A stretch of 41,764 nucleotides of DNA from Patescibacteria group bacterium (GCA_018818405.1 JAHIRY010000027.1:1-41764), one strand, 5' to 3'. Counted from the stretch's first letter, positions 16,374 to 41,622 are shown. Numbers and translations are program-made. The notes: a model not told the origin generated them from the sequence alone.

Positions 16374-16841
16374 TCATTCTTTCACCCGGCTCTTCCCTAC
16401 GGGCAGAGATTCACAACTGATAAAATAATAAAAACAAATAAAACTCACCGTAGCCATCAAATCCAGACTGCACAAGACTCTATCTTTATTCATCGCAAAA
16501 AATAAAATTACTCCAGGAAAAACACACAACACCCAAACCAATCTAAGCAGTTGATGCATCTCCGGATTTTTTCTCGCGGTTGAACTTCTCTCCCTTTTCG
16601 TGTCCTGCAATAAATACCAACATACAAAACCAGAAATTACGAACAGCAATACTGCTTTCGCGATGAACATATTTCCTTCCAACATGCCGTAACAAACCTC
16701 GGAAACCACAAAAATCATCGCATTGAGGTAGGCAATCTTATAATTTAATTTCCCGATTCCCGTTATCTTCGCGCCCCAGTCGGAAAATCGCTGAAATTTG
16801 TCCAGCACCCAGCGGTCGATGGAAGAGATAACTCTCCACAT
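16374..16841 (-). CDS. Orphan 4-TM membrane protein
   Basis: AAGGAGG SD before ATG 16841; promoter TTGACA-17-TAAACT at 16874-16902; four hydrophobic segments. Confidence 0.75.
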   Translation of the reverse strand: MWRVISSIDRWVLDKFQRFSDWGAKITGIGKLNYKIAYLNAMIFVVSEVCYGMLEGNMFIAKAVLLFVISGFVCWYLLQDTKRERSSTARKNPEMHQLLRLVWVLCVFPGVILFFAMNKDRVLCSLDLMATVSFICFYYFISCESLPVGKSRVKE

Positions 16842-16922
16842 GGCGTCCTCCTTGTCAATGTTCAAACCTTGTAAGTTTACAAAAAACCGCGAATTTTGTC
16901 AATCAATTACCGCAAACATTAA

Positions 16923-16990
16923 TTGACTGCCTATTTAATTCATGCTATACTTTCCACGAAAGCTAGTTTAGATAATAAACTAGCATTTTT
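16923..16990 (+). promoter_or_regulatory. nusA promoter and leader attenuator-like hairpin
   Basis: TTGACT-17-TATACT (extended TG), then GCTAGTTTA-GATAA-TAAACTAGC-ATTTTTT. Confidence 0.65.
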
Positions 16991-17030
16991 TATAAATAAA
17001 TTTAGTTTTTACCAACTATTTGCAAAAGTT

Positions 17031-18509
17031 ATGATAGACCCATCAATCAAAGCCGCGATCAAGCAAATTTGCGCGGAAAAAGGACTTTCCGAAGAATCTG
17101 TCCTCGAAACAATCAATTCCGCATTGGCAGCCGCTTACCGAAAAGATTTCGGCGACAAAATGCAAAATATTCAGGCTGAATTTGAATTGGACAAAGGAAC
17201 AATAAAAATTTTCGATGTAAAAGAAGTTGTGACAGACCTGTCTCCCGAAGAATTGGCCGCAATGGAAGAAATGCGATTGAAGCGTGAAGCGATCAAAGAA
17301 GCGCTGGAAAAAGGAGAAATTACGCCCGAAGAATTGAAAAAACAGCGGGATGAAGAAGAAATAAAATCAGCTGAAGCAAAGGAAGAAAAAGCCGAAGGCG
17401 AGGAAGCGGAAGAAGAACGGCATTTCAATCCGAAAACGGAAATTCAAATTTCAGACGCGAAAAAAATCGATGAAAAATATGAAATCGGAGATTTTGTAAA
17501 AACCGAATTGGCAATTCCCGGAGAATTCGGCCGAATGGCAGCGCAAACCGCGAAGCAAGTGATCATTCAGCGACTGCGCGAAGCGGAAAGAAATATCATT
17601 TATCAATCATTCAAAGACAAAGAAGGCGAAATTCTCAACGGCATGGTTCAAAAAATCGAAGGCCGCAACATTATAATTGATCTGGACAATGCGACCGCCA
17701 TCATGCCGCCGTTCGAACAAATCAGACGGGAAAATTACCGCATCGGCGACAGAATAAAAATTCTGCTCGTCAGCGTTTCTCTCACAACCCGCGGACCGGA
17801 ATTGATCGTTTCTCGCGCCAGCACGGACTTTGTAAAAAAACTTTTTACTTTGGAAATTCCGGAAATCTCCAATAATACGATTGAAATAAAAGAAATCGCC
17901 AGAGAAGCCGGCTCTCGAACAAAACTTGCCGTATTTACGGCTGACGAAAACATTGATCCCATCGGATCATGCATCGGACAGCGCGGCGCCCGCATTCAGA
18001 CTATCATCCAAGAATTGGGCGGAGAAAAAATCGACATTATCGAATATAGCGAAGATCCGAAAAAATTCATTACAAATTCATTGTTGCCCGCTAAAATCAC
18101 AAGCGTTGAACTCAATGAATCTGACAAAACTGCGGAAGTCTCGGTTCCGCAGGATCAATTATCATTAACGATCGGACGCGCCGGACAAAATGTCCGACTC
18201 GCCTCGAAAATCACCGGCTGGACAATCAAAATAAAAGAAGCCGCGGCTGAAGCTCAACCGGAAACTGAAACAACCGAGAAAACGGAAGAACAGCCGGCAG
18301 TTGAAGCGGAAAAACCAAAGGCTAAAAAGAAATCCAAGAAAAAAGAAACTTCAGACGAAGCGGAATCAACGAAAACCGAGCCGGTTGCCGAGAAGAAATC
18401 CGCCAAGAAAAAGAAATCTGAAAAAGTTGAAGCGGAAAAAAAAGAAGAAGAACCGATGAAAGAAGCGGAACAAGCCGCGGAAACTTCAGAAGAAAAAATC
18501 GCTGAATAA
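17031..18509 (+). CDS. nusA: Transcription factor NusA with internal insert and charged tail
   Basis: FGRMAAQTAKQVIIQRLREAER, S1 domain, AREAGSRTK, IGQRGARI, IGRAGQNVRLAS. Start refined to 17031. Confidence 0.97.
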   Translation: MIDPSIKAAIKQICAEKGLSEESVLETINSALAAAYRKDFGDKMQNIQAEFELDKGTIKIFDVKEVVTDLSPEELAAMEEMRLKREAIKEALEKGEITPEELKKQRDEEEIKSAEAKEEKAEGEEAEEERHFNPKTEIQISDAKKIDEKYEIGDFVKTELAIPGEFGRMAAQTAKQVIIQRLREAERNIIYQSFKDKEGEILNGMVQKIEGRNIIIDLDNATAIMPPFEQIRRENYRIGDRIKILLVSVSLTTRGPELIVSRASTDFVKKLFTLEIPEISNNTIEIKEIAREAGSRTKLAVFTADENIDPIGSCIGQRGARIQTIIQELGGEKIDIIEYSEDPKKFITNSLLPAKITSVELNESDKTAEVSVPQDQLSLTIGRAGQNVRLASKITGWTIKIKEAAAEAQPETETTEKTEEQPAVEAEKPKAKKKSKKKETSDEAESTKTEPVAEKKSAKKKKSEKVEAEKKEEEPMKEAEQAAETSEEKIAE

Positions 18510-18557
18510 ACTTTCATTCGAAAAAATTAATTTTATTTTTCCAATTACTTCACAATT

Positions 18558-19295
18558 ATGATTCAACTTTTTAACACGGTTCTATATCAGCCCATTTACA
18601 ATTTGCTGGTTTTTCTCTACAACATTGTGCCGGGCAATGACATCGGACTGGCGATCATCGCGCTCACAATTATAATAAAAGTAATCTTATATCCATTCGG
18701 AGTTCAGGCGATAAAAGCGCAAAAACAATTGCAAGACATTCAGCCTAAACTAGATGAATTGAAATCAAAACACAAAGACGACAAAGAAAAGTTGGCATCG
18801 GAAACAATGAAAATTTACAAGGAACAAAAAGTAAATCCGCTGTCTTCCTGTCTGCCCCTGCTAATTCAATTTCCATTTCTGATCGCGGTTTATCACGCTT
18901 TTCGCACCGGTCTGGCGTCCAGCGATTTGAACCTGCTCTATTCATTCGTGCCAAATCCCGGACACATCAATTCGATTTCAGCCGGAATTATCGATCTGGC
19001 CGTTCCCAGCATTCTCCTCGCCGTTCTGGCCGGAGCCGCGCAATTCGTTCAGACAAAAATGATGCCGATGGCTCAGCCGAAAATAAAAACGGACGCGTCA
19101 AAAGACGAAAGCATGATGGCGAGCATGAACAAAAGCATGTTGTATTTCATGCCGGTAATGACAATAATAATCGGAATAAATCTGCCGGCCGGACTGACTC
19201 TTTATTGGCTACTGACAACAGTATTAACAACGGTTCAGCAAAAAATTCTTTTCCGAAAAAAACAAAACATGACGACAATAGTCGAAGCAAAATAA
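18558..19295 (+). CDS. yidC: YidC/Oxa1 membrane insertase
   Basis: NPLSSCLPLLIQFP, PAGLTLYW. Confidence 0.95.
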   Translation: MIQLFNTVLYQPIYNLLVFLYNIVPGNDIGLAIIALTIIIKVILYPFGVQAIKAQKQLQDIQPKLDELKSKHKDDKEKLASETMKIYKEQKVNPLSSCLPLLIQFPFLIAVYHAFRTGLASSDLNLLYSFVPNPGHINSISAGIIDLAVPSILLAVLAGAAQFVQTKMMPMAQPKIKTDASKDESMMASMNKSMLYFMPVMTIIIGINLPAGLTLYWLLTTVLTTVQQKILFRKKQNMTTIVEAK

Positions 19296-19296
19296 A

Positions 19297-19608
19297 ATGA
19301 TTATCAACTTTCAAAAATTAAAAAACTTGCCGGTGGAAACGGAAAAAGGCATTCACCTCGGAGATCTTATCGACATTGAAATCAATGTCAACGACCATTC
19401 GATAACGAAATATCTGGCCAATGACAAAAAATATTTGATTACCGGAAATAAATTTCTCATTTCTCCGGAACAAATCATCAGCATTTCCGAAGAAAAAATC
19501 ATTGTGGCTGACAACACGGTTCTGAGCGAAGAACAAGAAAAAGCAACGCCAGCGCTCAATGTGGAAGAAGCGGGAATAATCAACGCAAAATTGGAAAACC
19601 GGTTATGA
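19297..19608 (+). CDS. PRC-barrel domain protein
   Basis: LPVETEKGIHLG.L.DIEI..I.SI.EEKIIV. Confidence 0.8.
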   Translation: MIINFQKLKNLPVETEKGIHLGDLIDIEINVNDHSITKYLANDKKYLITGNKFLISPEQIISISEEKIIVADNTVLSEEQEKATPALNVEEAGIINAKLENRL

Positions 19609-19609
19609 T

Positions 19610-20596
19610 ATGCGAAAAATTGAAAAAAACATTTCAGAAACTCTCGCGTATTTCAACCTTTTCCAAATGCCGCTGACATCATGGGAAATATACAAAAATC
19701 TTTTTAATCCCGAGAAAAATTATTTTTTTTCCGAAATTCTGGAAACATTGGAAAACATGAAAAATAAAAGTCTTCACGAACAAGAAGGCTTTTATTTTTT
19801 TGCCGGAGAAGAAAAAAATATCGCGATTCGAAAAGAGCGATATCTCATTGCAAATGAAAAAATAAAAAAAGCGCGCCAATATTTGCGACTCATCGGAATT
19901 CTGCCGTTCGTTCGCGCGATTTTCATCTGCAATGATCTCGGCTATCTTAATGCTCCGGAAGGAAGCGACATTGATCTGGCAATCATCGCGAAAAAGAATA
20001 GAATTTGGACGGCAAGATTTTTTTCAACTCTGCTCATGGCTATTCTCCGAAAAAGACCAACAGCAAAATCGCGCAAAAATAAAATTTGTCTGAGTTTTTA
20101 TATAACTGAAGACAATCTGAGTCTGGAAAAAATCGCATATGAAAATGACATTCATTTCGTTTATTGGATCAATCAATTCATGCCGATTTTCCAAATGGAA
20201 AATCTGGCTGAACGGTTCTCAACGGAAAATGAATGGACGCGCCGATTTCTGCCACATTCATATCCCCACAAAACAAATGATCGCTGGTCAATAAAAATAA
20301 ATTCTTTCGCAAAAAATACAATGGAATTTTTCATCAAAGGAAAACTCGGAGATTTGCTCGAAACAATCTTGAAAAAAATCCAACTGAAACTTTTTCCCCG
20401 AACACTGGAGCTTAAAAAACTTGAAGAAAATACGGATGTAATTATCAATGACAAAATTCTGAAATTCCATTGCAAAGATTGCCGGCTGGAAATCAAGAAA
20501 AATTGGAAAGAAAAAACCGGCCGAAATGTTATCCGGCCGGATTATTTTCCCCTTGATTCAAAAAGTTCGGCAGCGCGAGAAGTCAAAACTCTTTGA
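19610..20596 (+). CDS. Nucleotidyltransferase-fold hypothetical protein
   Basis: LPFVRAI..SDIDL..RIWTAR..KICLSF. Confidence 0.7.
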   Translation: MRKIEKNISETLAYFNLFQMPLTSWEIYKNLFNPEKNYFFSEILETLENMKNKSLHEQEGFYFFAGEEKNIAIRKERYLIANEKIKKARQYLRLIGILPFVRAIFICNDLGYLNAPEGSDIDLAIIAKKNRIWTARFFSTLLMAILRKRPTAKSRKNKICLSFYITEDNLSLEKIAYENDIHFVYWINQFMPIFQMENLAERFSTENEWTRRFLPHSYPHKTNDRWSIKINSFAKNTMEFFIKGKLGDLLETILKKIQLKLFPRTLELKKLEENTDVIINDKILKFHCKDCRLEIKKNWKEKTGRNVIRPDYFPLDSKSSAAREVKTL

Positions 20597-21001
20597 TTCG
20601 CCCTTGTATGAAATCGATCCTCCGATTCGATCATTGATGGGAGCGTGCGCAATGGAAACGGAAATATTCGGCTCCAGACGTTGGACAGATCCTTCGCATC
20701 CATTGATATCGTAGGAAATGTCGCTGATCGACGCGCGACTTTGATTGAAAATTTTTATCCCGTTTTTATCAGCTGAAATTTCCATTTCATCCCATGAATA
20801 TTGGCAGAGGAGCTGACGCTCGAAATTTGATTCTTCGGCTGCCTCATCGATAAAATAGATAAAAAAGAAAATCAAAACAAATACTAAAATAAACGGCCAT
20901 ATTCCAACAGCTGAAATTCCGCGAAAACCATGATTTTTCAGCGACAGCGCCAGCCCCGCTAACAACAAAACCAAACTCAAAGTTATAAGATAACTTGCCA
21001 T
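20558..21001 (-). CDS. Orphan 2-TM membrane protein
   Basis: GGAGGT SD before ATG 21001; two hydrophobic helices then a soluble domain. Confidence 0.7.
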   Translation of the reverse strand: MASYLITLSLVLLLAGLALSLKNHGFRGISAVGIWPFILVFVLIFFFIYFIDEAAEESNFERQLLCQYSWDEMEISADKNGIKIFNQSRASISDISYDINGCEGSVQRLEPNISVSIAHAPINDRIGGSISYKGESKSFDFSRCRTF

Positions 21002-21051
21002 GATAAACCTCCGTTGTTCATTCGTTAGTGGTTGCGGTGAAAGATTCCCTT

Positions 21052-21504
21052 TTATCGTTTTGCGATTTTCTCGCATTTCTTGAAATTCAACTCAAATTCA
21101 AGTTCTCCCGTTCTCAACGTTGCGGTTGGAAGCGATCGTATCCAGCTTTGATCGCTCACGAATATTCTGCCGCCTTCCGGCAAATTCGCGTCAATTTTCG
21201 CTGAACCGCGATCCAGAAACACCGGTTTTTCTTCCTTCCCGGTATTTTCCACCAGCAATACTTCTTGAACGGAAGTTATTTTCAACCCGTTTTCATGAAA
21301 AATACATTGTCCGCCCAGCATTTCCGGGGACAATTGCATTAAAACAACCAAATGCATCGCCAGAGACAAAAACTCCACGACCAATCCTGAGGTCAGAAAA
21401 CAATGGCGCAGTCCGTGCATTACTCTGCTTCTCTTGCAGAATAGAAACGTTGCGACAAGAAAAAAACCCAACATTTCGAAAATCACGATTCCCCAGCTGA
21501 TCAT
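21052..21504 (-). CDS. Orphan 2-TM membrane protein
   Basis: AAGGAGG SD before ATG 21504; TTGACA-17-TACATT upstream. Confidence 0.7.
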   Translation of the reverse strand: MISWGIVIFEMLGFFLVATFLFCKRSRVMHGLRHCFLTSGLVVEFLSLAMHLVVLMQLSPEMLGGQCIFHENGLKITSVQEVLLVENTGKEEKPVFLDRGSAKIDANLPEGGRIFVSDQSWIRSLPTATLRTGELEFELNFKKCEKIAKR

Positions 21505-21580
21505 GCGTCCTCCTTTTTCACGCAAATTGTCAAAAAACCATTGATTTAATGTATAATGAATATAATTAATTGTCAATCCT

Positions 21581-22876
21581 ATGCAAAAACTAAAACAAAT
21601 CATCGATTATCTTATTTATCTTCTGATTTTTCTCCTTCCTCTGCAAACGCGCTGGATTTATCATGAAGGAATATTGAACGGAGAACCGTGGGAATACGGC
21701 GCATTTTCCCTGTATGCCACGGAAATTCTGTTCGGCGTTATTTTGATTCTCTCCATAATTCATCTGATCGGAACATGGAAATCGAAATTTTCAAAGCCGG
21801 ATAAACGAAGAATTTTCCGCGTTTCCATTTTGATAATTTTTATCTTATTTTTCATTCTCAACGCTTTTTTCGCGATCAACTCTTCCATCGCTATTTACAA
21901 ATTCGTCCAGCTCATTCTCGCAACCGCTTTTTTCATAATAATTTTAATCAGCCGGCTTGATCTCAAAAAAATTTCCTGGGCGATCGCGCTGAGCGCCCTG
22001 TATCAAAGCATTGTCGCGATTCAGCAATTCATCGGACAGAAAGTTATTGCCAATAAATGGCTGGGAATGTCAGCGCAAGATCCGGCAACGCTCGGAGTTC
22101 CGGTGATCGAATCAGCTGGAATTCGCACGCTTCGCAGTTTCGGCACAATGCCGCATCCGAATATTTTGGCCGGATTTCTTCTCATCAGCTTAATAGTTAT
22201 CATCGGTTTGTACGCCATGACAAAAATTTCCAAACGAAAAAAACTATTGCAGCTTTTATTCACAATAAATTTCATCGGACTGCTCACCGCTTTTTCCCGC
22301 TCAGCCCTTCTGGCTTTTGCTGTCGTCACAATTTTCATGGCTTTTTATTTCAGCAAAGACAAAATCATGAGTCGCGCGACAACCAAATTCATCATCATCG
22401 CGATTTTCATTTTCATATTATTTTCCGTTTCTTTTCCAAATCTTATGGCAGCGCGCGCGTTCGGCGAAGGAAGACTCGAAGTTCAATCCAACGCTTCCCG
22501 GCTGGAGCAATACAATGAATTCGCAAAAATATTTTCAAACCGTTGGCTCATCGGCGTCGGTCTCGAAAATTATTCCTTGGCGGTGAATGAAATCAATCCG
22601 AATCAGCCGGCTTGGAATTATCAACCGATTCACAATGTTTATCTGCTGATAATTACTGAACTCGGTATTGCCGGAATCGCAATTCTCGGATTGCTCGGAT
22701 TTATGATTTTCAAATTGATAAAACTTCAGAAAAACAAAAATTATTATCTTCCCTGCCTGGTCGCGCTCGGATTTCTCGCTCTGTTCGACCATTATTTATG
22801 GAGCTTTTATTTCGGAATAATGTTCTGCGCGCTGATCCTCGGACTGGCGCTAACCGAGCAATCGGGAAAAAAATAA
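21581..22876 (+). CDS. O-antigen ligase (Wzy_C) family membrane protein
   Basis: Multi-TM; R..GTMPHPNILAG, FSRSA, GVGLENY, PIHNVYL..ELG. Confidence 0.9.
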   Translation: MQKLKQIIDYLIYLLIFLLPLQTRWIYHEGILNGEPWEYGAFSLYATEILFGVILILSIIHLIGTWKSKFSKPDKRRIFRVSILIIFILFFILNAFFAINSSIAIYKFVQLILATAFFIIILISRLDLKKISWAIALSALYQSIVAIQQFIGQKVIANKWLGMSAQDPATLGVPVIESAGIRTLRSFGTMPHPNILAGFLLISLIVIIGLYAMTKISKRKKLLQLLFTINFIGLLTAFSRSALLAFAVVTIFMAFYFSKDKIMSRATTKFIIIAIFIFILFSVSFPNLMAARAFGEGRLEVQSNASRLEQYNEFAKIFSNRWLIGVGLENYSLAVNEINPNQPAWNYQPIHNVYLLIITELGIAGIAILGLLGFMIFKLIKLQKNKNYYLPCLVALGFLALFDHYLWSFYFGIMFCALILGLALTEQSGKK

Positions 22877-22877
22877 T

Positions 22878-23879
22878 ATGAATAAAATTTCTGAAAAATA
22901 TTTCGGCAAGCACACTTTTCATCCTGATATAAAAAAAATCACTGCCCAAACAATCGATGAAACCGGATTCAAAATCAAAAAGGAAATCTGGCGCGGCATT
23001 ATTTATGACAAAAATAAAGTCGGCAGTTTGATTTATTCAGGCGAATATAATGCAAAACCGGCAATTCTAAAAATTCAAGGTTTGAAACCGGAGATTGACG
23101 AAATTGATATTTTCAATCTATTCAAAAAAAATAATCTCAGCGCAAAAATAAAACTTCCGGAATTATTCGCCAAGAAAAAATATTCACGAAAAACCGGATT
23201 CGGCTATTTGATCATGGAAAATATTCCGCAAAAGAAAATTTTTGCGCCTCCATTTGCTTCGGAAAAACAAATCAAGCTGTTTTGTGAATTTTACAATGAA
23301 TATCGCGAAAAAGTTTTTGCGGTTCCCTGGTGGAAAAATAGTATCAATACTGAAAAATTCATCTTGCAGAGACTGGCGGGCTGGATCAAAATCAGCAAAC
23401 ACAAAAAATTTTGGGATGAAAATCTCCAAGGAATCCGCGTAAAACAATTCAGAAAAATCATCAAAGCAAATTCCGATAAAATACCCATGGTCTTCTCCCG
23501 CGGACATCTGTCTTGCAATGATCTGTATCTTCAAAAAAACAAATTCGTTCTTCTCTCAAATTTATTCTGGAGCTGGCGGCCGAAATATTATGATCTGGCG
23601 TTCAATCTCTGGGCGTGTCTGTTAAAACTTCCGGCTGATTATTCATTTGAAAAAACGATTCTCTTTTTGGAAAAATGGATTACGGCTTATCGCTCCATTC
23701 CATGGATAAAAAAACAAAAAGATTTTGATGAAATTTTTTATATTTTATTGCTGGAAAGATTGCTCGGATCTCTTGTCATCGATGTTCGCGCGGGCAATCA
23801 ACCGAAAAGTGAACAAAAAAAACTTTTTGAACTTCATTTGAAACTTTTTGATTATTTTGCTAAATTAATTCAAGGGTAA
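22878..23879 (+). CDS. APH/kinase-like fold protein with atypical catalytic motifs
   Basis: AILKIQ, P.L, LIME, FSRGHLSCNDL, YDLA. Confidence 0.6.
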   Translation: MNKISEKYFGKHTFHPDIKKITAQTIDETGFKIKKEIWRGIIYDKNKVGSLIYSGEYNAKPAILKIQGLKPEIDEIDIFNLFKKNNLSAKIKLPELFAKKKYSRKTGFGYLIMENIPQKKIFAPPFASEKQIKLFCEFYNEYREKVFAVPWWKNSINTEKFILQRLAGWIKISKHKKFWDENLQGIRVKQFRKIIKANSDKIPMVFSRGHLSCNDLYLQKNKFVLLSNLFWSWRPKYYDLAFNLWACLLKLPADYSFEKTILFLEKWITAYRSIPWIKKQKDFDEIFYILLLERLLGSLVIDVRAGNQPKSEQKKLFELHLKLFDYFAKLIQG

Positions 23880-23907
23880 TTGTTCTCTCAAAACAAAGGA
23901 GCCGAAA

Positions 23908-24471
23908 ATGAAAGAAAAACATGGCGCCGCGATTCTCGGTTATGGAGTACCGCCGGACATTTTCAAGGATGGAAATTACAACCGCTACCTGGAGAATGCC
24001 TGGCTGGCGATCAATCTCAGCCAATGCGAGGAATTACTTCTGAGCGGCGGACATACAAATATTCATTATCCCGAAAAATCGGAAGCCGAAGAAATGCACA
24101 AGTATTTGATGACAATACCGGGATTCAGAGAATCCGGAATCATCGTTTTCAAAAATGAAGATTCCATCACCAGCTGGGAAAACATCAAATGGATTGATTG
24201 CATGATACGCGAAAATTCTCTCACTCACATCACTATTCATGGCGAGTTTTCACGCCGACGCAAAGTCAGGCTTCTCTGTCGCAGAATCCTTTCGCGCCAA
24301 GTCAAGGCAACTGTGAACGTCATTGATTTCGACCGCTCGCGAACGATTTTTTCCGATCTGAAGCAAATGATTGATTTTTTCGCCACTTTGTTGCAATTCA
24401 TGTTTCCAAAAATTCGCGACCTTCGCCATTGGCGGCAAATGCGCCATATCAAAAAAGTTTCACAACCGTAA
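23908..24471 (+). CDS. YdcF/DUF218-like protein
   Basis: ILGYG, LLSGGHT, SEAEEM, EDSITSWENI; AAGGAG SD; promoter TTGAAA-17-TAAATT at 23838-23866. Confidence 0.75.
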   Translation: MKEKHGAAILGYGVPPDIFKDGNYNRYLENAWLAINLSQCEELLLSGGHTNIHYPEKSEAEEMHKYLMTIPGFRESGIIVFKNEDSITSWENIKWIDCMIRENSLTHITIHGEFSRRRKVRLLCRRILSRQVKATVNVIDFDRSRTIFSDLKQMIDFFATLLQFMFPKIRDLRHWRQMRHIKKVSQP

Positions 24472-24483
24472 AAAACAATTTCC

Positions 24484-24511
24484 AAGGCTGTCTAACAGCC
24501 TTTCTTTTTTT
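24484..24511 (+). terminator. Intrinsic terminator
   Basis: AAGGCTGT-CTA-ACAGCCTT followed by a T tract. Confidence 0.75.
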
Positions 24512-24589
24512 CCGAAAAATGTCATAAAATAAATCGCCGGACCAAACTTGACGAACAGCGGTTTTTTATTATAAGATTGTGATTGCAAA

Positions 24590-24964: not shown

Positions 24965-26851
<1,887 letters not shown>

Positions 26852-27002: not shown

Positions 27003-27527
27003 CTATTTCCCGCCACCCGCGCTGACCATGACGCGAAGTTGCTCTCGTGACATGAGACGCACTGACGCAGTTGAAAAATGTTCATTCCAAAGAAGAATTT
27101 CTTCGCTTCTGATCCGCCCCCGCGCGAGCAGTTCCTGAACGATTTCAAAAAACTTCAGTTCACAAGCCTTCTCGAACCCATGAAAATTGAAATCCATGCT
27201 GAACGAATAAATCGTCGAAACCTCGCTTTCTTTGAGGCAAATTCTTTGTGAGATTCGATATGCCGGCAACTTCACATGCAGCAATACCACCTGAATATGA
27301 ATGACTTGGATGCCGCTGGAATACGCGCAATCCACCACACTCCGGATCATTTCGGGAATAACCGTGCGAACTTTCTCCAGCTTTTCGCTGCGATCGTCCC
27401 TCCGAATTTGCAATGCTTTAATTTCGCGGTCACAATCGAGAATTTCCTTGAGATACAATGATTCAGTTTCGAGGCAAATCTCCAAGTCCCTGAGACTACT
27501 CTTGGTCGGAGAATACATCTCTGTCAT
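27003..27527 (-). CDS. Orphan protein with N-terminal coiled coil
   Basis: GGAGGT SD at 27533-27538; TTGACA-17-TAATTT upstream. Confidence 0.7.
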   Translation of the reverse strand: MTEMYSPTKSSLRDLEICLETESLYLKEILDCDREIKALQIRRDDRSEKLEKVRTVIPEMIRSVVDCAYSSGIQVIHIQVVLLHVKLPAYRISQRICLKESEVSTIYSFSMDFNFHGFEKACELKFFEIVQELLARGRIRSEEILLWNEHFSTASVRLMSREQLRVMVSAGGGK

Positions 27528-27621
27528 GGCCCACCTCCAGCCGTCAACTGTTAATCAGGCACTCCACTAAATTAACCCGACAAAACAATTTTGTCAATCC
27601 CGCAATTCTCAATAAATAACC

Positions 27622-32301: not shown

Positions 32302-32302
32302 T

Positions 32303-33581: not shown

Positions 33582-33684
33582 CAGCTCCCCTCGTTCACCG
33601 AAACATCAACTCCACCAATCTACCAGAAATCCAGCAAAAAGAAAAGACCGGAAATCCGGCTTTTCATTGATGCACAGTCAAATC

Positions 33685-34575: not shown

Positions 34576-34706
34576 ACGCGTTTTGATTACTTATTATCAA
34601 TAACATTTTAGCATCTTCAATTATTTTGGCAAATAAGTTTTTCCGCAATAAATTGTATAACCGCGATAAAAAATGTATAATGCAATTATTGAAATAACAA
34701 AATCTT

Positions 34707-36464
34707 ATGGCAGACAGTCACCTATCAATCGAAGAATTATTATCAAAAAAAGCAAAAACCCAATTAAAAGGCGGAGCCGCTCCTGCCGCCGGCGCCGCGC
34801 CAACTTCCGATGAAGATGAATCAACGGGCGGGAAATTGGAAAAAAAATTGGAAAACATTCAAATCTCAGGAGCGGAAGCAAAAGTAAAAAGCGATGCTGA
34901 CGCGCTCGGACTTCCATATCTTGATCTAACTGCATTTCCCATGAGCGAGGAAGCGCTGAAAACCATTCCGGAAAATGTTTGCCGGGAAAATAATTTGATT
35001 TGTTTTGTAAATACGGGCGAAGAATTTCGGCTGGCCTCAACCGATCCGAAAAATCCCAAAATTGAAGAAATCAAACACAGCCTCGAAGATTCTCTTCATT
35101 CAAAAGGCGCGCTGTACCTGATTTCAAAACGCAGTCTGGAAAAAGCGCTGAAACAATATGCAAGGCTGCCGAAACTAAAAGCCGCCCCAAAAGGAGTTGA
35201 AGTGAGCGCCGAAGAAATGGAAAAATTCAAATCAATTGTCACCAATTTCAAACAATTGGATGAATATATCAAAAAAGTTAATGTCACCGAATTGGTAACT
35301 CTTATTATCGCGGCCGCGGTTCAGGCGAATTCTTCCGACATTCATATTGAAGCCGAAGAAAATGATGTTAAAGTCAGATTTCGCGTTGACGGAATTTTGC
35401 ATGATGCCGCGTCAATCGACAAAGCTCTCTGGCCGAAAATAATTTCCAGAATAAAACTGCTTTCAGGTTTGAAACTTAATATCACGGAAAAACCGCAAGA
35501 CGGCAGATTCAGCATCAAAATGACTGAAGGAAAAATGGATGTCCGCGTATCCTGCACTCCGATCACTTGGGGCGAGAGCGTTGTTATGAGATTGCTAAAG
35601 GCTTCTTCAACTTCTCTGACATTTGAAGATCTGGGAATTATCGGCAAAGCTTATGCTGAACTGAAAACGCAAACGGAACGGCCGAACGGAATGATTATCA
35701 CCACCGGTCCGACCGGATCCGGAAAAACGACAACTCTTTACGCGATTTTAAATAAGTTGAATACGGAAGGAATAAAAATTTTCACGCTGGAAGATCCGGT
35801 GGAATACAAACTCGAAGGAATAAATCAAAGCCAGATCGATCACAGCAAAGGATATTCATTTGCCGACGGACTAAGATCGATCCTGCGCCAAGATCCTGAT
35901 ATTGTCATGGTCGGAGAAATGCGCGATCTCGAAACAGCGGAAACCGCAATAAACTCGGCGCTCACCGGACATCTGGTGCTTTCCACCATTCACACCAACA
36001 GCGCGGCCGGCGCAATTCCAAGATTTCTGGCGCTCGGAGTAAAACCGTTTCTTCTGGCACCCGCATTGAACATTGTCATGGGTCAGCGATTGGTGAGAAA
36101 AATTTGTCAGGAATGCAAACAAGAAGTTCAACTGGATCCGGAAAAATTAAAAAGAGCGACTGAACTTTTATCCGCCATTCCGGAAAAACATCCTGATCGG
36201 CCGGATCTGAGCAAACTTGTATTCTATGAATCAAAAGGCTGCAAAACCTGCAATGATATCGGATACAAAGGACGGCTGGGAATTTATGAAATTATGATTC
36301 TCTCTCCGGAAATAGAAAAACTAATCTCAGTGGAAAATGTTTCGGAAAATGATATTCAAAACGAAGCGATCAAAGGCGGAATGATTACAATGGCGCAAGA
36401 CGGATTGCTAAAAGCGCTCAAAGGAATAACTTCGGTGGATGAAATCTTCAGAGTCAGCGAATAA
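34707..36464 (+). CDS. GspE/PilB-family type IV pilus/T2SS assembly ATPase
   Basis: SDIHIE, RFRVDG, PQDGR, GPTGSGKTT, LRQDPD..GEMRD, STIHTN, CxxC..CxxC. Confidence 0.95.
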   Translation: MADSHLSIEELLSKKAKTQLKGGAAPAAGAAPTSDEDESTGGKLEKKLENIQISGAEAKVKSDADALGLPYLDLTAFPMSEEALKTIPENVCRENNLICFVNTGEEFRLASTDPKNPKIEEIKHSLEDSLHSKGALYLISKRSLEKALKQYARLPKLKAAPKGVEVSAEEMEKFKSIVTNFKQLDEYIKKVNVTELVTLIIAAAVQANSSDIHIEAEENDVKVRFRVDGILHDAASIDKALWPKIISRIKLLSGLKLNITEKPQDGRFSIKMTEGKMDVRVSCTPITWGESVVMRLLKASSTSLTFEDLGIIGKAYAELKTQTERPNGMIITTGPTGSGKTTTLYAILNKLNTEGIKIFTLEDPVEYKLEGINQSQIDHSKGYSFADGLRSILRQDPDIVMVGEMRDLETAETAINSALTGHLVLSTIHTNSAAGAIPRFLALGVKPFLLAPALNIVMGQRLVRKICQECKQEVQLDPEKLKRATELLSAIPEKHPDRPDLSKLVFYESKGCKTCNDIGYKGRLGIYEIMILSPEIEKLISVENVSENDIQNEAIKGGMITMAQDGLLKALKGITSVDEIFRVSE

Positions 36465-36475
36465 TCAGACAAAAC

Positions 36476-36503
36476 AAAAAAGAGCTTTTCAAAGCTCTTT
36501 TTT
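36476..36503 (+). terminator. Intrinsic terminator
   Basis: AAGAGCTT-TTCA-AAGCTCTT followed by a T tract. Confidence 0.8.
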
Positions 36504-36593
36504 ATTTTCATTCTTGACAACCCCGTAAATCGTGCTATTCTATATTATTGTTTGTTCATTACCCCACAACGAACAAAGGCGGAGGAGGCAATA

Positions 36594-36977
36594 ATGCGGA
36601 ATGACTTTCGGGAAAAAATCCAAGTGCTCAGCGACAAAGCAAATGATCTTCGTCGAAAACTTGATGATCCCTACCGCCATGAAACTCATAGACTGTTCAT
36701 GCTCAGTCAATTGAAACAAGTGTCAATCGCCCTGCTAAAAATTCGTATAACTCCTGCAGCTTACGGATCATGCGAGAAATGCGAGGAACTCATCGAGGAG
36801 GCTCGGCTCGCAATTATTCCGGAAGCTCAATTCTGCGTTGATTGCGCGGAAGAGCAAGAAAAACTTCAGCGAAAGACGGCGCCCGAACTGACCGATCTGG
36901 CGAAAGACTGCGAAACATTTTCTCCGGAAGATCCGCATGAAAACATCGTGGCTCGATTCAAAGCGGCGGAGGTGTAA
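36594..36977 (+). CDS. TraR/DksA C4-type zinc finger protein
   Basis: YGSCEKCEELIEEARLAIIPEAQFCVDC; GGAGGAGG SD; promoter TTGACA-16-TATTCT at 36514-36541. Confidence 0.85.
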   Translation: MRNDFREKIQVLSDKANDLRRKLDDPYRHETHRLFMLSQLKQVSIALLKIRITPAAYGSCEKCEELIEEARLAIIPEAQFCVDCAEEQEKLQRKTAPELTDLAKDCETFSPEDPHENIVARFKAAEV

Positions 36978-36978
36978 G

Positions 36979-37248
36979 ATGTCAAGGGGGGAAGAAATCA
37001 TTCAACTTGCGGTCCAATCGCTCGGACAAATGCAACCGGATATTCCCATTGATTTGGCGCTGGCAACATTGATTCCGCTGTGGCAAGACTATGTCCGGCA
37101 GATCATGCCCGGCAACCTGCGCGAACAGTTTGAAAGAATCGAATGTGTTAGAAAAAAAATTGAATTCTGCGATCAAGGCGATCCGCAATTCAGACTGACC
37201 GCATTCTGGCGGATTTCTCTCCAGCGCTACATTCAGACTTTCAACTAG
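36979..37248 (+). CDS. Orphan protein
   Basis: GGAGGT SD before ATG 36979; terminator-like hairpin at ~37265-37290. Confidence 0.65.
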   Translation: MSRGEEIIQLAVQSLGQMQPDIPIDLALATLIPLWQDYVRQIMPGNLREQFERIECVRKKIEFCDQGDPQFRLTAFWRISLQRYIQTFN

Positions 37249-37421
37249 AAAGTCAAAAAAAATTGACCGGGTTCACAATCCGGTCTTTTTCTTTTCATCA
37301 GATGAACTAAATGTTAAAATTAGTTCAAATTCCATGTAATTATTCAACAAACTGCAAATACTTGACATAATCAAATATTTATTATAATCTTAATTCTCCA
37401 CTCAAAAAAAGGAAGATCACC

Positions 37422-37595
37422 ATGAAAGCAACAGAATTAACCAAAACCCAAAAGGAGTATTTCGAACTGCTGACGGCAATCGCCGCTGAACGAGGATTGA
37501 CGATTCAGATCAGAAATCAAAAGATTCTGTGGAGGAGCCGTAAAACCGGAAGATTCGTCACGTGGTCTTCCATCAACATTTTGTCCAAAAAATAA
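37422..37595 (+). CDS. 57-aa small basic protein missed by the ORF track
   Basis: MKATELTK..WRSRKTGRFVTW..SKK*; TTGACA (37362) promoter, AAGGAAG, terminator at 37598-37628. Confidence 0.65.
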   Translation: MKATELTKTQKEYFELLTAIAAERGLTIQIRNQKILWRSRKTGRFVTWSSINILSKK

Positions 37596-37639
37596 AACAG
37601 AGCCCTTGCAACAAGAGCTCTGTATTATTTTAAAAAACT

Positions 37640-38995
37640 TTATTGAAACAACTTCAAAGAGAAAACTAATTTATTAATTGTTGATATTGGAATTTGTTCC
37701 TTTGTCACCACATTTGAAATGAAATTTTTTACCGAAGAAGTGGTGGCCGCTCCCAGATTTATTGACTTCAACAGAAAGATACTTATCAAATCCACTTTAA
37801 AATTTTCGCCTCCGGGAACATGCATTTGCATTATCTGATGAAAACCTTCTTTCAAAATATCAGTATCTTTTTCCGCACTTTCAAAAATTTTCTCCAAAAA
37901 GTTTTTCCAAATCAGATTGAATCTTTGATTTTTTCCGATCCTTTCTTCCAACTTTCTCAATTCTTGTTTTTTTCGCTCGACTTCCACATCAACCTTCTCA
38001 TTTTTTGTTATTGCAAACTGTCTCATAATGCGTATAACGGCTCGGTCATCAATAAATCTTTTTGTCGCACCCAAATAACATTCTTGCGGCGGCTCTGTAC
38101 CTTCGAAAACAGTGGATGATCCGAAATCAATAATATATCCTTGATAACTTTTTTCAGACGGACCTTCCTTTTCCTCAATCATAAAATTTCTTTGATGCGC
38201 ATCGCGCCAGCAAACTCCATTTTCATGCAGCGCATTGATTGCCGCGTTATACTGATCCAACAATTCCCGAGGAAAACGAAATTCTTTTCTTTCCAAATAT
38301 TGATAAAGCAATTCTTCATTTTTATTGTAAACTTTTTCCTCCTCAATACTTTTCGCTTCTCTCGTTTTGCCCTTTCCTCCCGGGTCGCTGAAACCGAGAG
38401 CCATTCCGACATTTTCATGCAATTCGGAAAAACTCAATTGATCCACAGCTGAAACAAGATGCCGCAATCGCGAATGCGTCTTTACCACCGCTCGATATAA
38501 ATAATTCGCCAGATCAACTCCGGGAATAAAATCCATCAAAATTATTTCCGCTCGACCCGGAGCGCTCTTTAATCCTCTGTTCATCAGGAAATCTTGAGTC
38601 GCTTTTGTCAACGAAATATCTCTGAACAAAATCGGATTCGCAACTTTCGCGATCGAACCGGAAGTTTTATTGATAATATCAAAAGCTCTTTTCTGCATTT
38701 CAAATTCATGTTTTCCCGCACCCGGCCGATAAACTTTCAAAACTTTAACAACGCCAGTACCTTCAATCGACAATCCGAATTCCCGCAGAACCTCACCGAA
38801 CTCAACACCCATATCATCACTTACTTTGTCAAAATCAACCAGAAAAACCACACCATTGTTGCCTTCATTTATTTTTTCCGCGTACTTCACCAAAATCAAT
38901 TCCATCTGAGCATCCAGGGCTTTTTCTTTTTCAGATGAAACCGCTTCTTCAACAGCCGGTATTACCGGCGCTCCGGTTATTTTTTTCTCTGCCAT
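37640..38995 (-). CDS. Protein kinase-like protein
   Basis: EGNNGVV Gly-loop, VVKVLK, LMDFIPG, HENGVCWRDAHQRNFMI, IIDFG. Confidence 0.85.
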   Translation of the reverse strand: MAEKKITGAPVIPAVEEAVSSEKEKALDAQMELILVKYAEKINEGNNGVVFLVDFDKVSDDMGVEFGEVLREFGLSIEGTGVVKVLKVYRPGAGKHEFEMQKRAFDIINKTSGSIAKVANPILFRDISLTKATQDFLMNRGLKSAPGRAEIILMDFIPGVDLANYLYRAVVKTHSRLRHLVSAVDQLSFSELHENVGMALGFSDPGGKGKTREAKSIEEEKVYNKNEELLYQYLERKEFRFPRELLDQYNAAINALHENGVCWRDAHQRNFMIEEKEGPSEKSYQGYIIDFGSSTVFEGTEPPQECYLGATKRFIDDRAVIRIMRQFAITKNEKVDVEVERKKQELRKLEERIGKNQRFNLIWKNFLEKIFESAEKDTDILKEGFHQIMQMHVPGGENFKVDLISIFLLKSINLGAATTSSVKNFISNVVTKEQIPISTINKLVFSLKLFQ

Positions 38996-39000
38996 AATTT

Positions 39001-39435
39001 TTAAGTAATAATTATTTCTCTGGTATTTTCATCCAGATCGTTAAATTTTATTTTTTTCATTCTAATTTTTCCTTTCCGCAAATAATCTTCCAGCCCGGCG
39101 CCCCATTCCACGAAACAAACACAATCATCGCGTCCGAAATATTCCAAAGCTCCGATATTTTCCAAATCATTAATATCCAATCCGCGATAAGTGTCAATGT
39201 GGATCAAATTTTTTATTTTCAAATGTTTGCTGATTTTATAAATCTTCATAATCACAAAAGTCGGACTGGTAATATTTTTCCTCAGATCAAATCCAACGGC
39301 AACGCCTTTCACAAAAGTGGTTTTTCCCGCACCCAAATCTCCGACCAACAAAATAACTTCGCCGCCTTTCAAACGCGCGGCGAATTTTTTCCCTTGCATT
39401 ATTGTTCCTTTTTCGCTTTTTGTAATTATTTTCAT
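39001..39435 (-). CDS. tsaE: tRNA t6A biosynthesis ATPase TsaE
   Basis: GDLGAGKTTF, TSPTF, HIDTYR, VEW. Confidence 0.96.
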   Translation of the reverse strand: MKIITKSEKGTIMQGKKFAARLKGGEVILLVGDLGAGKTTFVKGVAVGFDLRKNITSPTFVIMKIYKISKHLKIKNLIHIDTYRGLDINDLENIGALEYFGRDDCVCFVEWGAGLEDYLRKGKIRMKKIKFNDLDENTREIIIT

Positions 39436-39436
39436 T

Positions 39437-39714
39437 TTTAGCTGATTAGCTGATTAGCTTCTTCCCGCCGCGGGCGGGATAAATAGCTTTTTAGCTAGTT
39501 TAAAACTTTACGACTGATTTATATGTTAGGTGGCAACACCGCAGGTGCGAGGCAGGCGAATTATCTTTTCGTAATCATAATTTATCAGTTGCTTGGGATT
39601 TATAATTTGGAATTTAAAAATTGTTTAGGATTTCGTATTTCAAATTTCGGATTAAATATTTTGCTACATGCTACATGTTATGTGCTACATGATTAGTGCT
39701 CCTTGTTCCTTGCT
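39437..39714 (-). repeat. Modular intergenic element, copy C (tsaD-tsaE)
   Basis: TAGCTTTTTAGCTA, CACCGCA..GGCGAATTAT, TTTAGGATTTCGTATTTC, ATGCTAC repeats and TTAGTGCTCCTTG shared with copy A. Confidence 0.85.
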
Positions 39715-39726
39715 AATTACTCCCTG

Positions 39727-40788
39727 TCACTCAACCAACTCCCAATTCGGATCAGCTGTCAATTCTTCCGGAACAATAAAATCTTTTCCCTTCGCGTGAA
39801 AATATCCGGCGATCGCAATCATTGCCGCATTGTCTCCGGTCATTTCCATTAAAGGCGTTAACAATTTCGCTCGAGGCAATTCCTCGGCAACCGCGGATTC
39901 CAACGATTCCCGCAAAGCCTTGTTCGCGCTGACGCCTCCGCCCAAAACTATTGTTTTCGCTTTGTTCGCCTGTGCGGCGCGCATTGTCTTCGAAACAAGA
40001 CATTCGACAACAGCATTTTGAAATTCAACCGCCAACTCGCGGCGCGCTCTTTCCAATTGTTTCTTGTTTAAACTTAATTTCAAATCTCGCCACTTGTACA
40101 AAACAGCTGTCTTCAATCCGGAAAAACTGAAATTGAAATTATCGGAATTCAACATTGGCCGCGGCAGTTTAATATTAAATTCGCTTGTACGTCCGTCCAA
40201 CTTGTCCGCTTCATTTGAAATCGCCGGTCCGCCGGGATAACCCAGATCCATAATTTTCGCCGCTTTGTCAAAAGCTTCGCCTGCCGCGTCATCACGCGTT
40301 TCACCGATCAATTTGTATTTCAAAAAATCTTTCATCAAAATAATCTGCGAATGACCGCCGGAAACAACCAACGCAATGGCGGGAAATCGAATTTTTTGTT
40401 CTGCATCATTCTTGCCAGCGAACACGGAATACAAATGTCCCTCAATATGATTCGTTCTAATCAATGGTTTATGCAAAACCATTGCCAAAGTTTTCGCTGT
40501 TTCCACGCCAATCAAAAGAGAACTCATCAATCCGGGACCGGCGCAAACGGCAATGCAATCAACATTTTCTATTTTTACTTTTGCATTTTCCAATGCACTC
40601 TCGATAATCGGCAAAATTTTCTGAATATGCAACCGCGCCGCCACCTCGGGAACAACTCCGCCGTATTTCGCATGCGTTTTTACCTGAGATGCAACAACGT
40701 TTGATACAACCTGAAAACATCCATTGTCCGCTCGAACAATGGAAGCCGCTGTTTCATCGCAGGATGTTTCGATTCCCAGTATTATCAT
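39727..40788 (-). CDS. tsaD: tRNA t6A threonylcarbamoyltransferase TsaD
   Basis: LGIETSCDET, GGVVPEVAAR, HIEGH, VSGGH, DDAAGEAFDK, DNAAMIA. Confidence 0.98.
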   Translation of the reverse strand: MIILGIETSCDETAASIVRADNGCFQVVSNVVASQVKTHAKYGGVVPEVAARLHIQKILPIIESALENAKVKIENVDCIAVCAGPGLMSSLLIGVETAKTLAMVLHKPLIRTNHIEGHLYSVFAGKNDAEQKIRFPAIALVVSGGHSQIILMKDFLKYKLIGETRDDAAGEAFDKAAKIMDLGYPGGPAISNEADKLDGRTSEFNIKLPRPMLNSDNFNFSFSGLKTAVLYKWRDLKLSLNKKQLERARRELAVEFQNAVVECLVSKTMRAAQANKAKTIVLGGGVSANKALRESLESAVAEELPRAKLLTPLMEMTGDNAAMIAIAGYFHAKGKDFIVPEELTADPNWELVE

Positions 40789-40936
40789 AATTATTCAACA
40801 ATTCTAAAATCATTTTCTCATTTTTTTTGACAAAAGTAAACTCAAAAACATTTGACTTATCATATTTAATTTGTTATTATTTTTCTCGTTCAGTCATCTC
40901 GAAAAAAACGGTTTCTTAATTTCAAGATCAAATCAA

Positions 40937-41011
40937 GCCGCCATCGTCTAGGGGTTAGGACACCAGGTTTTCATCCTGGTAACCGGAGTTCGAGTCTCCG
41001 TGGCGGTACCA
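40937..41011 (+). tRNA. tRNA-Glu (TTC)
   Basis: Acceptor GCCGCCA/TGGCGGT, anticodon stem CCAGG/CCTGG with loop TTTTCAT, GTTCGAG T-loop, encoded CCA. Confidence 0.97.
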
Positions 41012-41047
41012 AAAAAGCATTATCGAAAGATAATGTTTTTTTGTTTT
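41012..41047 (+). terminator. Terminator after tRNA-Glu
   Basis: GCATTATC-GAAA-GATAATGT followed by a T tract. Confidence 0.8.
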
Positions 41048-41187
41048 ACTGAAAAAACATCTAATTGCTTTCAATATTCCAAAAATCGCCAACACATCAT
41101 TTAGCTGCTGCCATTGACAAAACCGCGGCTGTAATATAATATTCAAAGTAATCGCCAGGTCATTCTCAGCAGACACAAGGAGCAGAC

Positions 41188-41622
41188 ATGCGCACCAACC
41201 AACTGATCGAGTTCAGAAAAAAGCGAGAAAAAATTCTGAGAGAGTTGGACGCGGAAATTCGTTCAATGGCATCTGGCTTGTGGGATCGAATCCCCGCTGA
41301 ACTGCACAATTTCCGTTTCCAATTCTGGGGAAATGAAGTCGGATTTTTCAAATGGCTCAATGCCATCACAAAAGATCATACAGAATATCCTGCGCCAACG
41401 GGCTTGAAGTATGGACTTCCGGTTTTCTACTGCGCAAGAATTTTGAAAGATAACCTCGGAAATAACGGCTTCACCTCGCAGGAACAGGCAAAACAATGTT
41501 TTGAACAGCTCAGTCGTCACTGGAAAGGGGTTCTACAAACTGAAGTGAGAATTATGCCAAATAATTGCATCGAAATCTATTTCATGATCGATGATCCCGC
41601 GTTTACTCAGTCCGCGGACTGA
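41188..41622 (+). CDS. Orphan protein
   Basis: AAGGAG SD; TTGACA (41114)-17-TAATAT promoter. Confidence 0.7.
   Translation: MRTNQLIEFRKKREKILRELDAEIRSMASGLWDRIPAELHNFRFQFWGNEVGFFKWLNAITKDHTEYPAPTGLKYGLPVFYCARILKDNLGNNGFTSQEQAKQCFEQLSRHWKGVLQTEVRIMPNNCIEIYFMIDDPAFTQSAD

Follow-up and report, generated by a model that had tools for sequence, protein, structure and literature searches.

Shine-Dalgarno-led accessory genes among Shine-Dalgarno-less core genes in a Patescibacteria genome and its relatives

Why should a bacterium that starts most of its genes without a Shine-Dalgarno (SD) sequence keep a canonical one in front of a scattered minority? The question arises from a stretch of 41,764 nt (the window), which is an entire 41.8-kb contig (C3) of a Patescibacteria group bacterium (GCA_018818405.1; genome G000, 1.06 Mb in 48 contigs, G+C about 41%). 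For this window an initial annotation had proposed two regimes of translation initiation, with SD-less core genes on one side and SD-bearing orphan genes on the other. We find that two sets of start signals divide the whole genome, that they are coupled to composition, conservation and promoter type, and that they persist across genera. On balance, we lean toward the reading that two initiation architectures exist side by side and that the SD-led set forms a maintained, flexible accessory compartment. Positions refer to the whole window unless a contig is named. Long open reading frames (ORFs) in G000 are closed by all three stop codons, so the standard bacterial code applies, and the closest named RecA records come from metagenome-assembled genomes of Falkowbacteria, Magasanikbacteria, Uhrbacteria and Buchananbacteria (Patescibacteria, or Candidate Phyla Radiation, CPR).

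Genes were called with a home-made caller, in which a dicodon model is followed by a start model with and without an SD term, giving 992 genes. A strong SD was defined as a piece of AAGGAGG of at least five nucleotides in which the first G of GGAG lies 8-14 nt before the start. Such a motif precedes 103 of 991 called starts and none precedes 869, against a background of 88 in 11,964 in-frame start codons inside genes scored for the same motif (0.74%, and 0.5-1.0% in every class of G+C content at third codon positions, GC3). The first G of GGAG lies 10 nt from the start in 48 of 110 genes and 11 nt in 31, and over G000 GGAG is followed by ATG at offset 10 187 times, compared with about 90 at other offsets. 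A second GGAG-ATG peak is seen at offset 19 (147 over a whole-genome background of about 90). The base at -1 is T in 689 of 870 SD-less genes, whereas among the 103 SD genes it is C in 52, A in 29, G in 14 and T in 8; SD-less leaders contain 42-52% A at -11 to -4, with a peak of AAAA at -8 to -5. Duplex energies with the genome's own 16S tail are bimodal, with medians of -9.0 kcal/mol for the SD class and -0.9 kcal/mol for the rest. The region from -30 to +30 is also predicted to be more structured in SD genes (median minimum free energy -9.1 vs -4.3 kcal/mol, p = 1.5e-31); interior windows fold at -11.3 kcal/mol in SD genes and -9.8 kcal/mol in the others.

The window reproduces this division. 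Pfam names the products of its core genes as HU, ClpP, FtsK, RecA, SSB, S6, NusA, YidC, GroES/EL, YchF, a PilB-type ATPase, TsaE and TsaD, and the genes that the initial annotation had described as SD-less (hup, clpP, ftsK, recA, ssb, nusA, yidC, groES/EL, ychF, pilB and tsaD) do have A/T-rich leaders with no SD scored. Reading of the start regions likewise bore out an SD or SD-like motif at all nine orphan starts that it had named, the one at 37422 being weak (Table 1). The six model-called SD starts of the window are predicted to pair with the 16S tail at -6.7 to -9.3 kcal/mol, against -4.6 to +2.8 kcal/mol for the other called starts.

Composition separates the two classes as well. The initial annotation had seen no obvious compositional contrast, and inside the window the contrast is modest (GC3 0.43-0.54); genome-wide the statement fails, since G+C is 45.8% in SD genes and 41.1% in SD-less genes (+4.7 points, p = 1.6e-25). 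GC3 is 0.497 against 0.435, SD genes have a lower dicodon score, and the SD fraction is 0-9% below a GC3 of 0.50 and 38-79% at 0.50 and above. In the encoded proteins Cys (2.2x), Arg (1.3x) and Trp are raised, and Lys (0.72x), Tyr, Ile and Asn are lowered. Upstream, from -100 to -21, both classes have a G+C of 0.34. The contrast therefore resides in the leader and the coding part alone, which rules out GC-rich islands reaching into the flanks. Moreover, atypical composition alone does not bring an SD, because the AT-rich gene pair of the window, which resembles an acquired defence unit, has SD-less starts and T at -1, in agreement with its initial description as SD-less.

The promoters follow the same line. 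SD genes are less often operon-internal (11% vs 33% of SD-less genes) and more often have a divergent upstream neighbour (48 of 101 vs 162 of 823), and among operon heads a perfect TTGACA lies at -90 to -51 in 44 of 78 SD genes but in only 14 of 384 SD-less genes (odds ratio 34, p = 6e-28). Both promoter classes have a TTG -35 element, 17-nt spacing and a TG-extended -10 box, and resemble a strong and a weak form of a single sigma-70 type. A -10 box with at most one mismatch was found in 236 non-SD operon heads and ends 5-14 nt from the start in 34 of them, with a median leader, judged from motifs only, of 34 nt; G000 therefore does not fit the leaderless-dominated group C of GeneMarkS-2, in which the -10 box lies about 10 nt from the start. 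The proposed arrangement of the window's SD genes in one- or two-gene units, each with its own promoter and usually a terminator, holds: a perfect TTGACA lies upstream of six of the nine named starts, the other three having TTGAAA (23908) or being second genes of units, and each of the four units scanned between 16 and 28 kb is closed by a strong hairpin and a run of T.

Scored genome-wide, conserved and orphan genes have very different SD frequencies, as the initial annotation had expected. At E <= 1e-5, 27 of the 103 SD genes match a Pfam family, against 68 of 103 length-matched SD-less controls (Fisher p = 1.5e-8), one of which (21055-21603) is really an SD gene. Among the SD genes with a match are those for MFS and ABC transporters, a CHAP hydrolase, HAD hydrolases, a PRPP synthetase, a phosphoribosyltransferase, a nucleoside phosphorylase, a deaminase, an aromatic amino-acid lyase, a radical SAM protein and an integrase, the only integrase among the 103. 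Paralogues are found for 14 of 103 SD genes against 261 of 870 others, with three tandem pairs, which rules out a multi-copy or mobile family. A link to diversity-generating retroelements was also considered, and no RVT_1 match was found in G000. Relics of phage-derived genes, named at the outset as the mundane alternative, receive little support: at E <= 1e-5 only 10 of 106 SD-class proteins match PHROGs, these being generic cellular families and one integrase, and none is structural.

Phage morons and flexible genomic islets are self-contained units inserted between conserved genes. The SD-led genes resemble them as variable one- or two-gene units with their own promoter and terminator, located between core operons in recurrent slots. 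They differ in that they lie outside prophages, that 96 of 106 have no PHROGs match, that there is one integrase per 103 genes and that many are syntenic across genera.

The description of the window's SD genes as orphans stood for most of them. It does not strictly apply to 36594, which encodes a DksA/TraR-type zinc-finger protein, and 23908 has a sub-threshold match to DUF218. The proteins of 16374..16841 and 21052..21504 have no Pfam or PHROGs match, and the latter has no homologue in G002, a genome of the same family. In a word-seeded search of 5.8 billion proteins, which can miss distant relatives, the 16841 and 27527 proteins each matched only themselves. The 27527 gene was found in none of 40 relatives and the 41188 gene in none of 15 family genomes, in two of which the 23908 gene has homologues; an SD lies upstream of both of these and TTGACA upstream of one.

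The same pipeline was applied to two relatives: nearly all of G002 (1.30 Mb; same family, other genus), and 400 kb of G017, which belongs to another family of the order and whose anti-SD tail is canonical. SD-led genes number 155 of 1,186 in G002 (G+C 48.5 vs 40.9%, p = 7e-48) and 22 of 346 in G017 (52.7 vs 43.4%). T stands at -1 in 15 of 155 SD and 789 of 995 SD-less genes of G002, and in 3 of 22 and 275 of 312 genes, respectively, of G017, while TTGACA precedes 55 of 116 vs 20 of 491 operon heads in G002 and 10 of 17 vs 7 of 159 in G017. In a count over 41 genomes of the taxonomic class, AGGAGG-N4-7-ATG is well above control in the families of the order and at control level in four genomes of other families. 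Taken together, low but non-zero SD use is a trait of the clade, as far as relatives that are few in number and related to one another can represent it.

Conservation between genera shows that the SD class is both unstable and maintained. By reciprocal best hits, 30 of 103 SD genes and 559 of 870 SD-less genes have an orthologue in G002 (absent: 73 and 311), with a median identity of 38% and 60%, respectively, and 72 of the SD genes have no G002 match of any kind. However, 15 of the 30 G002 orthologues of SD genes are themselves SD-led, against 3 of 559 for SD-less genes, which answers the question, raised at the start, of whether SDs are conserved in orthologues. Synteny extends to at least one neighbour in all 15 of these SD-SD pairs and to at least two in 12; identities range from 25 to 69%, and GC3 is raised in most. 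The split is thus maintained and not simply decaying. Turnover is seen at the slots of SD genes present in G000 only: 14 of 32 evaluable slots are empty in G002, and 10 of 32 hold an unrelated SD-class gene, compared with 20 of 385 control slots (p = 2e-5). The SD class thus contains members kept over long periods alongside others that are gained, lost or diverge rapidly in slots that recur. A six-gene SD cluster lies at G000:C14 (L023:10468-18522) and encodes a PRPP-synthetase-like protein, a Peptidase_C39-like/MopE protein, two orphans and two HAD hydrolases. Each of the six has a syntenic orthologue in G002; three of these orthologues pass the strict SD call, and in both genomes the cluster has a raised GC3.

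The 16S gene lies in two parts, one at the end of C30 and the other, with the 3' end (G000:C47:374-430), at the start of C47. The tail reads ...GGAACAACUCCUUUCU / ...GGAUGGAACAACUCCUUUCU, giving an anti-SD of ACUCCUU in which A replaces the C1535 of E. coli (C1535A). Inspection of this 3' end, which had been suggested with the initial annotation, thus shows that a 6-nt complement to AAGGAG is retained. A1535 is common to all 11 genomes of the family with a tail recovered, while the neighbouring families f2 and f3 have CCUCC and families f4, f7 and f17 have UCUCC. The A of the resident tail faces the last G of AAGGAGG, and median SD duplexes reach -9.0 kcal/mol with this tail compared with -11.8 kcal/mol with the canonical one, a cost of about 2.8 kcal/mol per site. 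Adaptation of the SDs to A1535 is ruled out: before ATG at N4-7, GGAGT (76 vs 74 at control spacing) and GGAGA (157 vs 148) show no excess, and G still follows GGAG. Nor is low SD use tied to C1535A, because the counts of AGGAGG-N4-7-ATG per genome overlap between A1535 and C1535 families (f1 32-169, f2 55-142, f3 52-185).

Tsurumaki et al. 2022 (PMC9297842) found that only 48% of the 16S genes of Parcubacteria contain CCTCCT and suggested that no SD helices are formed there. By this criterion the family of G000 would count as lacking the motif. It differs from the subgroup as described there in that CUCCUU is retained and about a tenth of the genes have well-placed SDs conserved across genera; also, that account ties the loss of the motif to the loss of uL1, which is present in G000.

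We propose the following mechanism. About 88% of genes, including nearly all conserved ones, would start without SD pairing, on a leader that is A/U-rich, predicted to be almost unstructured and, in about 78%, ends in U before the AUG. 30S subunits would load on this open A/U leader, and a fourth base pair with the initiator tRNA, U(-1):A37, would help to fix the start codon. In E. coli, U directly 5' of AUG boosts initiation via A37 of the initiator tRNA (PMC10018350), and such quadruplet recognition of the start codon has a possible parallel in the U(-1) of about 78% of SD-less genes in G000. As described there, however, U(-1) is a modest modulator of SD-led genes in E. coli, whereas in G000 its use is near-universal among SD-less genes, and SD-led genes avoid it (8 of 103). 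In both tRNA(CAU) genes the anticodon is followed by A, and by analogy we infer that U(-1):A37 pairing may take place in this organism. One of the two, at G000:C2:967-1042 (minus strand), has C and not the near-universal U at position 33 (loop CCCAUAA, ARAGORN numbering).

The remaining 10-13% or so of genes would use a classical SD-led start, in which AAGGAGG, 5-6 nt before the AUG, would pair with the retained CUCCUU core of the variant anti-SD ACUCCUU. From the sequence, such pairing is the simplest reading for the SD minority. These genes, which are G+C-richer and mostly orphans, would occupy inter-operon slots that turn over, each unit usually with its own consensus sigma-70 promoter (perfect TTGACA) and often with a terminator. 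Their start regions, predicted to be about 5 kcal/mol more structured, might need an SD anchor that A/U-rich genes can forgo. If the more structured mRNAs do depend on the SD, its conservation would be explained. We infer these molecular steps, and the causal link from start-region structure to the need for an SD, from sequence features.

A close known parallel is found in the Bacteroidia, in which the anti-SD is sequestered by bS21, bS18 and bS6 and a strong SD precedes rpsU (PMC7797042, PMC9976891, PMC13000453); in B. ovatus about 3% of genes keep an SD (PMC6028130). As in Flavobacterium johnsoniae and the 'group B' of GeneMarkS-2, most genes of G000 are SD-less despite an anti-SD in the 16S, leaders are A-rich and there is an SD minority. 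Unlike in the Bacteroidia, U(-1) stands out as the strongest signal of all, the anti-SD carries a change of its own (C1535A), and the 10-13% of SD-led genes form a class by composition, promoter and conservation; in the cited accounts the Bacteroidia SD is essentially confined to rpsU, whereas about 10% of G000 genes have positioned SDs conserved between genera. Ribosomal_S21 (PF01165) was not found in G000, whose completeness is estimated at 100%. Given that no bS21 gene was found and that SDs appear to be in use, G000 would work like the Bacteroidia without being a member of that system. Since bS6 lines the anti-SD pocket in Bacteroidia, the roughly 80-residue C-terminal tail of the window's S6 may, by analogy, be relevant to the anti-SD.

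Several points weigh against a maintained accessory compartment. The gene calls and starts come from our own simple caller, and by our estimate, which takes in the background rate and how many candidate starts there are, some 20 of the 103 SD calls could be due to chance. A few core genes carry SD-like motifs: S1, RpoA and ATP synthase delta fall in the SD class, although the SDs of the latter two are absent in G002 and may be chance calls, and tuf has a weak motif. With rpsA, as seen in G000 and G002 only, and tuf carrying such motifs, the SD class is not purely accessory. A terminator excess is significant in G002 only. The G002 orthologues of the 30 SD genes comprise 15 with SD, one weak and 14 that lose the strict SD call, three of the 14 having degenerate GGGG-type motifs. 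Moreover, should these genes be long-standing residents, a further force would be needed to raise their GC3. Finally, simple pairing with the resident anti-SD does not predict that G is kept opposite A1535, and yet G follows GGAG in 78 of 110 genes of G000 and 135 of 167 of G002, as it does in 16 of 23 of G017 with its canonical tail; in the syntenic SD-SD pairs, counted by eye, it does so in 8 of 15 and 12 of 15.

Another explanation, which is doubtful in our view but deserves serious weight, would account for the last point. The SD class might consist of imports from G+C-richer, SD-using donors (bacteria, plasmids or phages) that carried over their own signals and have neither adapted nor lost them. 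Their SD fits the canonical C1535 anti-SD, the commonest tail among the relatives sampled, and not the resident A1535, and GGAGG is enriched while GGAGT is not. Higher G+C, the shift from Lys to Cys and Arg, the 72 genes without a homologue in the sister genus and the presence/absence and slot replacement between G000 and G002 would all be expected of imports; as in genomic islands, composition is atypical and the three window orphans searched occur in 0-2 of 15 family genomes. In addition, one unit (41188) lies beside a tRNA gene, one SD gene is an integrase, and some non-syntenic 'orthologues', such as the HAL lyase and the radical SAM protein, resemble replacements. However, core proteins of the two genera are only 60% identical, a distance over which mere carry-over should be erased, and 15 syntenic pairs nevertheless keep both the SD and the raised GC3. 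Donors are not visible either, as the two orphans tested matched only themselves and the few PHROGs matches include nothing structural. The equal G+C upstream of both classes also counts against import, and the G+C of the class lies above the local genome in each of the three genomes, not at one fixed donor value. As import leaves the syntenic conservation at this divergence, the absent donors and the class G+C unexplained, we rank a maintained compartment above unadapted imports, and both processes probably contribute.

A bolder proposal, which we regard as improbable, is that there are two separate expression codes and that the accessory one is read by a distinct state of the machinery, such as S1-free 30S subunits or a second sigma factor. 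The core code would consist of a weak -35 element, an open A/U leader, U(-1) and no SD, and the accessory code of a consensus -35 element, the canonical AAGGAGG and G+C-rich codons. If this were true, fast-turning accessory genes would be kept apart from housekeeping expression and could be switched together, and the family-wide C1535A would be a tuning of the second channel, not a step toward its loss. Slightly less probable again is a dedicated regulon, in which the consensus -35 element and the SD are read by specialised machinery, for instance a second sigma factor and/or S1-free ribosomes, and switched as a block, for example on host contact; the SD-like motif of rpsA would then act as feedback, like the rpsU SD in Flavobacteria. 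Promoter type and SD are coupled in three genomes, G000 has two sigma-70 family genes, rpsA combines an SD-like motif with TTGACA in G000 and has the motif in G002, and the reservation of the SD for one ribosomal-protein gene has a precedent in Bacteroidia (PMC9976891). Against a regulon, both promoter classes share the TTG -35 element, the 17-nt spacing and the TG-extended -10 box, the spacers of rpsA are long (8-10 nt after GGAG), and no CsrA, which could bind GGA motifs, was found in G000. The second sigma-70 family gene lies near a contig end at G000:C35:104-310 (minus strand; open frame 129 aa), and the primary one is on C48.

It is very improbable that orphans have SDs merely because their starts were picked by looking for SDs. 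The concern has some ground, since internal starts had been chosen at five of the nine sites in the initial annotation and the SD is one term of our start model. That model selected six of eight strong SD sites in the window; it missed the strong SD starts at 16841 and 21504, where it kept a longer ORF (which at 21504 contains the TTGACA promoter), and both starts were accepted by eye. However, a start model blind to the SD class still yields 77 strong SDs among 992 genes, and the division is repeated among the 67 genes that offer only one start (6 SD, 59 none; T at -1 in 0 of 6 and 46 of 59, respectively). With a background of at most 1.0% in every GC3 class, and with the -1 base, TTGACA, G+C and orthology each separating the classes independently, we reject this artefact. 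The suggestion that SD-bearing genes are tuned for the ribosomes of a host cell can practically be set aside: the one point in its favour is the better match of the SD consensus to the canonical than to the resident anti-SD, but the resident 16S is predicted still to pair with AAGGAG, the class includes cell-internal functions (MFS and ABC transporters, PRPP synthetase and S1), G017 with its canonical anti-SD has the same SD class, and nothing seen indicates a route for the export of mRNA or DNA.

A maintained accessory compartment with its own start signals would be of wider interest. A literature search, with the supplements of papers left aside, returned no description of SD-led accessory versus SD-less core genes in CPR bacteria. 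The SD-poor lifestyle as such is already known. What our analysis adds are genome-wide and cross-genus statistics, the coupling to promoters, start-region energies, syntenic conservation, slot turnover and the family-wide C1535A anti-SD with unadapted SDs. The SD minority is a definable class, coupling promoter strength, SD, start-region structure, codon G+C and turnover, and it recurs across genera. In this way the 'residual SDs' of SD-poor bacteria become a testable feature of CPR genome organisation, and they offer a marker, read from sequence alone, for the flexible genome of uncultured CPR bacteria. The combination of C1535A with unadapted AAGGAGG is a natural experiment on the contribution of position 1535 to SD recognition. 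A caller that has learned the majority signal will put the starts of SD-class genes in the wrong place; of two orphans compared with their public records, one has a public protein 23 residues shorter than its SD-led ORF.

Table 1. Features of the window and two core genes elsewhere in G000, with their start signals.
Feature	Position	Strand	Start signal or leader	Promoter, terminator and other observations
recA, SD-less	10680..11714	+	...gaaaaaccaatATG, U at -1, no SD	
Ribosomal protein S6, 175 aa	12851-13378	-		S6 domain at residues 4-93, then C-terminal extension
AAA_21/AbiEii-like ATPase and 159-aa orphan	13885-15550	+		AT-rich pair, G+C 0.29-0.33
155-aa hydrophobic SD-led orphan	16374..16841	-	AAGGAGG-N5-ATG, AAGGAGG at 16847-16853	Promoter-like TTGACA-17-TAAACT at 16902-16874; terminator 16308-16283
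147-aa SD-led orphan, second in unit of 21504	20558..21001	-	GGAGG at 21008-21012	Terminator 20540-20517
150-aa SD-led orphan, first of two-gene unit	21052..21504	-	AAGGAGG-N4-ATG, AAGGAGG at 21509-21515	Promoter-like TTGACA-17-TACATT at 21576-21548
187-aa SD-led gene, sub-threshold DUF218	23908..24471	+	AAGGAG at 23896-23901	TTGAAA promoter; terminator 24484-24502
groEL, SD-less	25211..26851	+	...ctaaataccctATG, U at -1, no SD	
174-aa SD-led orphan	27003..27527	-	GGAGG at 27534-27538	TTGACA about 65 nt 5' of start; terminator 26990-26961
Type IV pilus ATPase (PilB-like), SD-less	34707..36464	+	...aaataacaaaatcttATG	
127-aa DksA/TraR-type zinc-finger protein, SD-led	36594..36977	+	AGGAGG at 36583-36588	TTGACA upstream
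89-aa SD-led orphan, second in unit of 36594	36979..37248	+	GGAGG at 36968-36972	
57-aa small ORF	37422..37598	+	Weak SD-like AGGAAG at 37410-37415	TTGACA at 37362-37367
tRNA-Glu(UUC)	40937-41011	+		Just 5' of 41188 SD unit; classic insertion-site context
144-aa SD-led orphan	41188..41622	+	AAGGAG at 41177-41182	TTGACA-N17-TATAAT upstream
rpsA (S1)	G000:C1:5268-6503	-	AAGGAG, 8-10 nt spacer	TTGACA box; SD-like motif also in G002
tuf	G000:C22 (locus L039:8845-10035)		GGAGAATAATA..ATG	Same in G000 and G002

Some smaller observations concern the window itself. No integrase is seen between the 41188 unit and the contig end at 41764. In the 16841 unit, TTGACA at 16853-16858 directly abuts the SD. 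The same junction (TTGACAAGGAGG) occurs in six G000 genes (the others at C1:11945, C1:12932, C9:20032, C8:17251 and C36:849) and in three or four G002 genes, and a longer 'tttgaacaTTGACAAGGAGG' leader is common to three of the G000 copies, two of which are tandem paralogues. This could be either a leader element or a coincidence of two common motifs. At its left edge (8-211, plus strand), the contig starts inside a gene for an R.Pab1-type restriction endonuclease (Pfam PF09522, profile positions 55-119).

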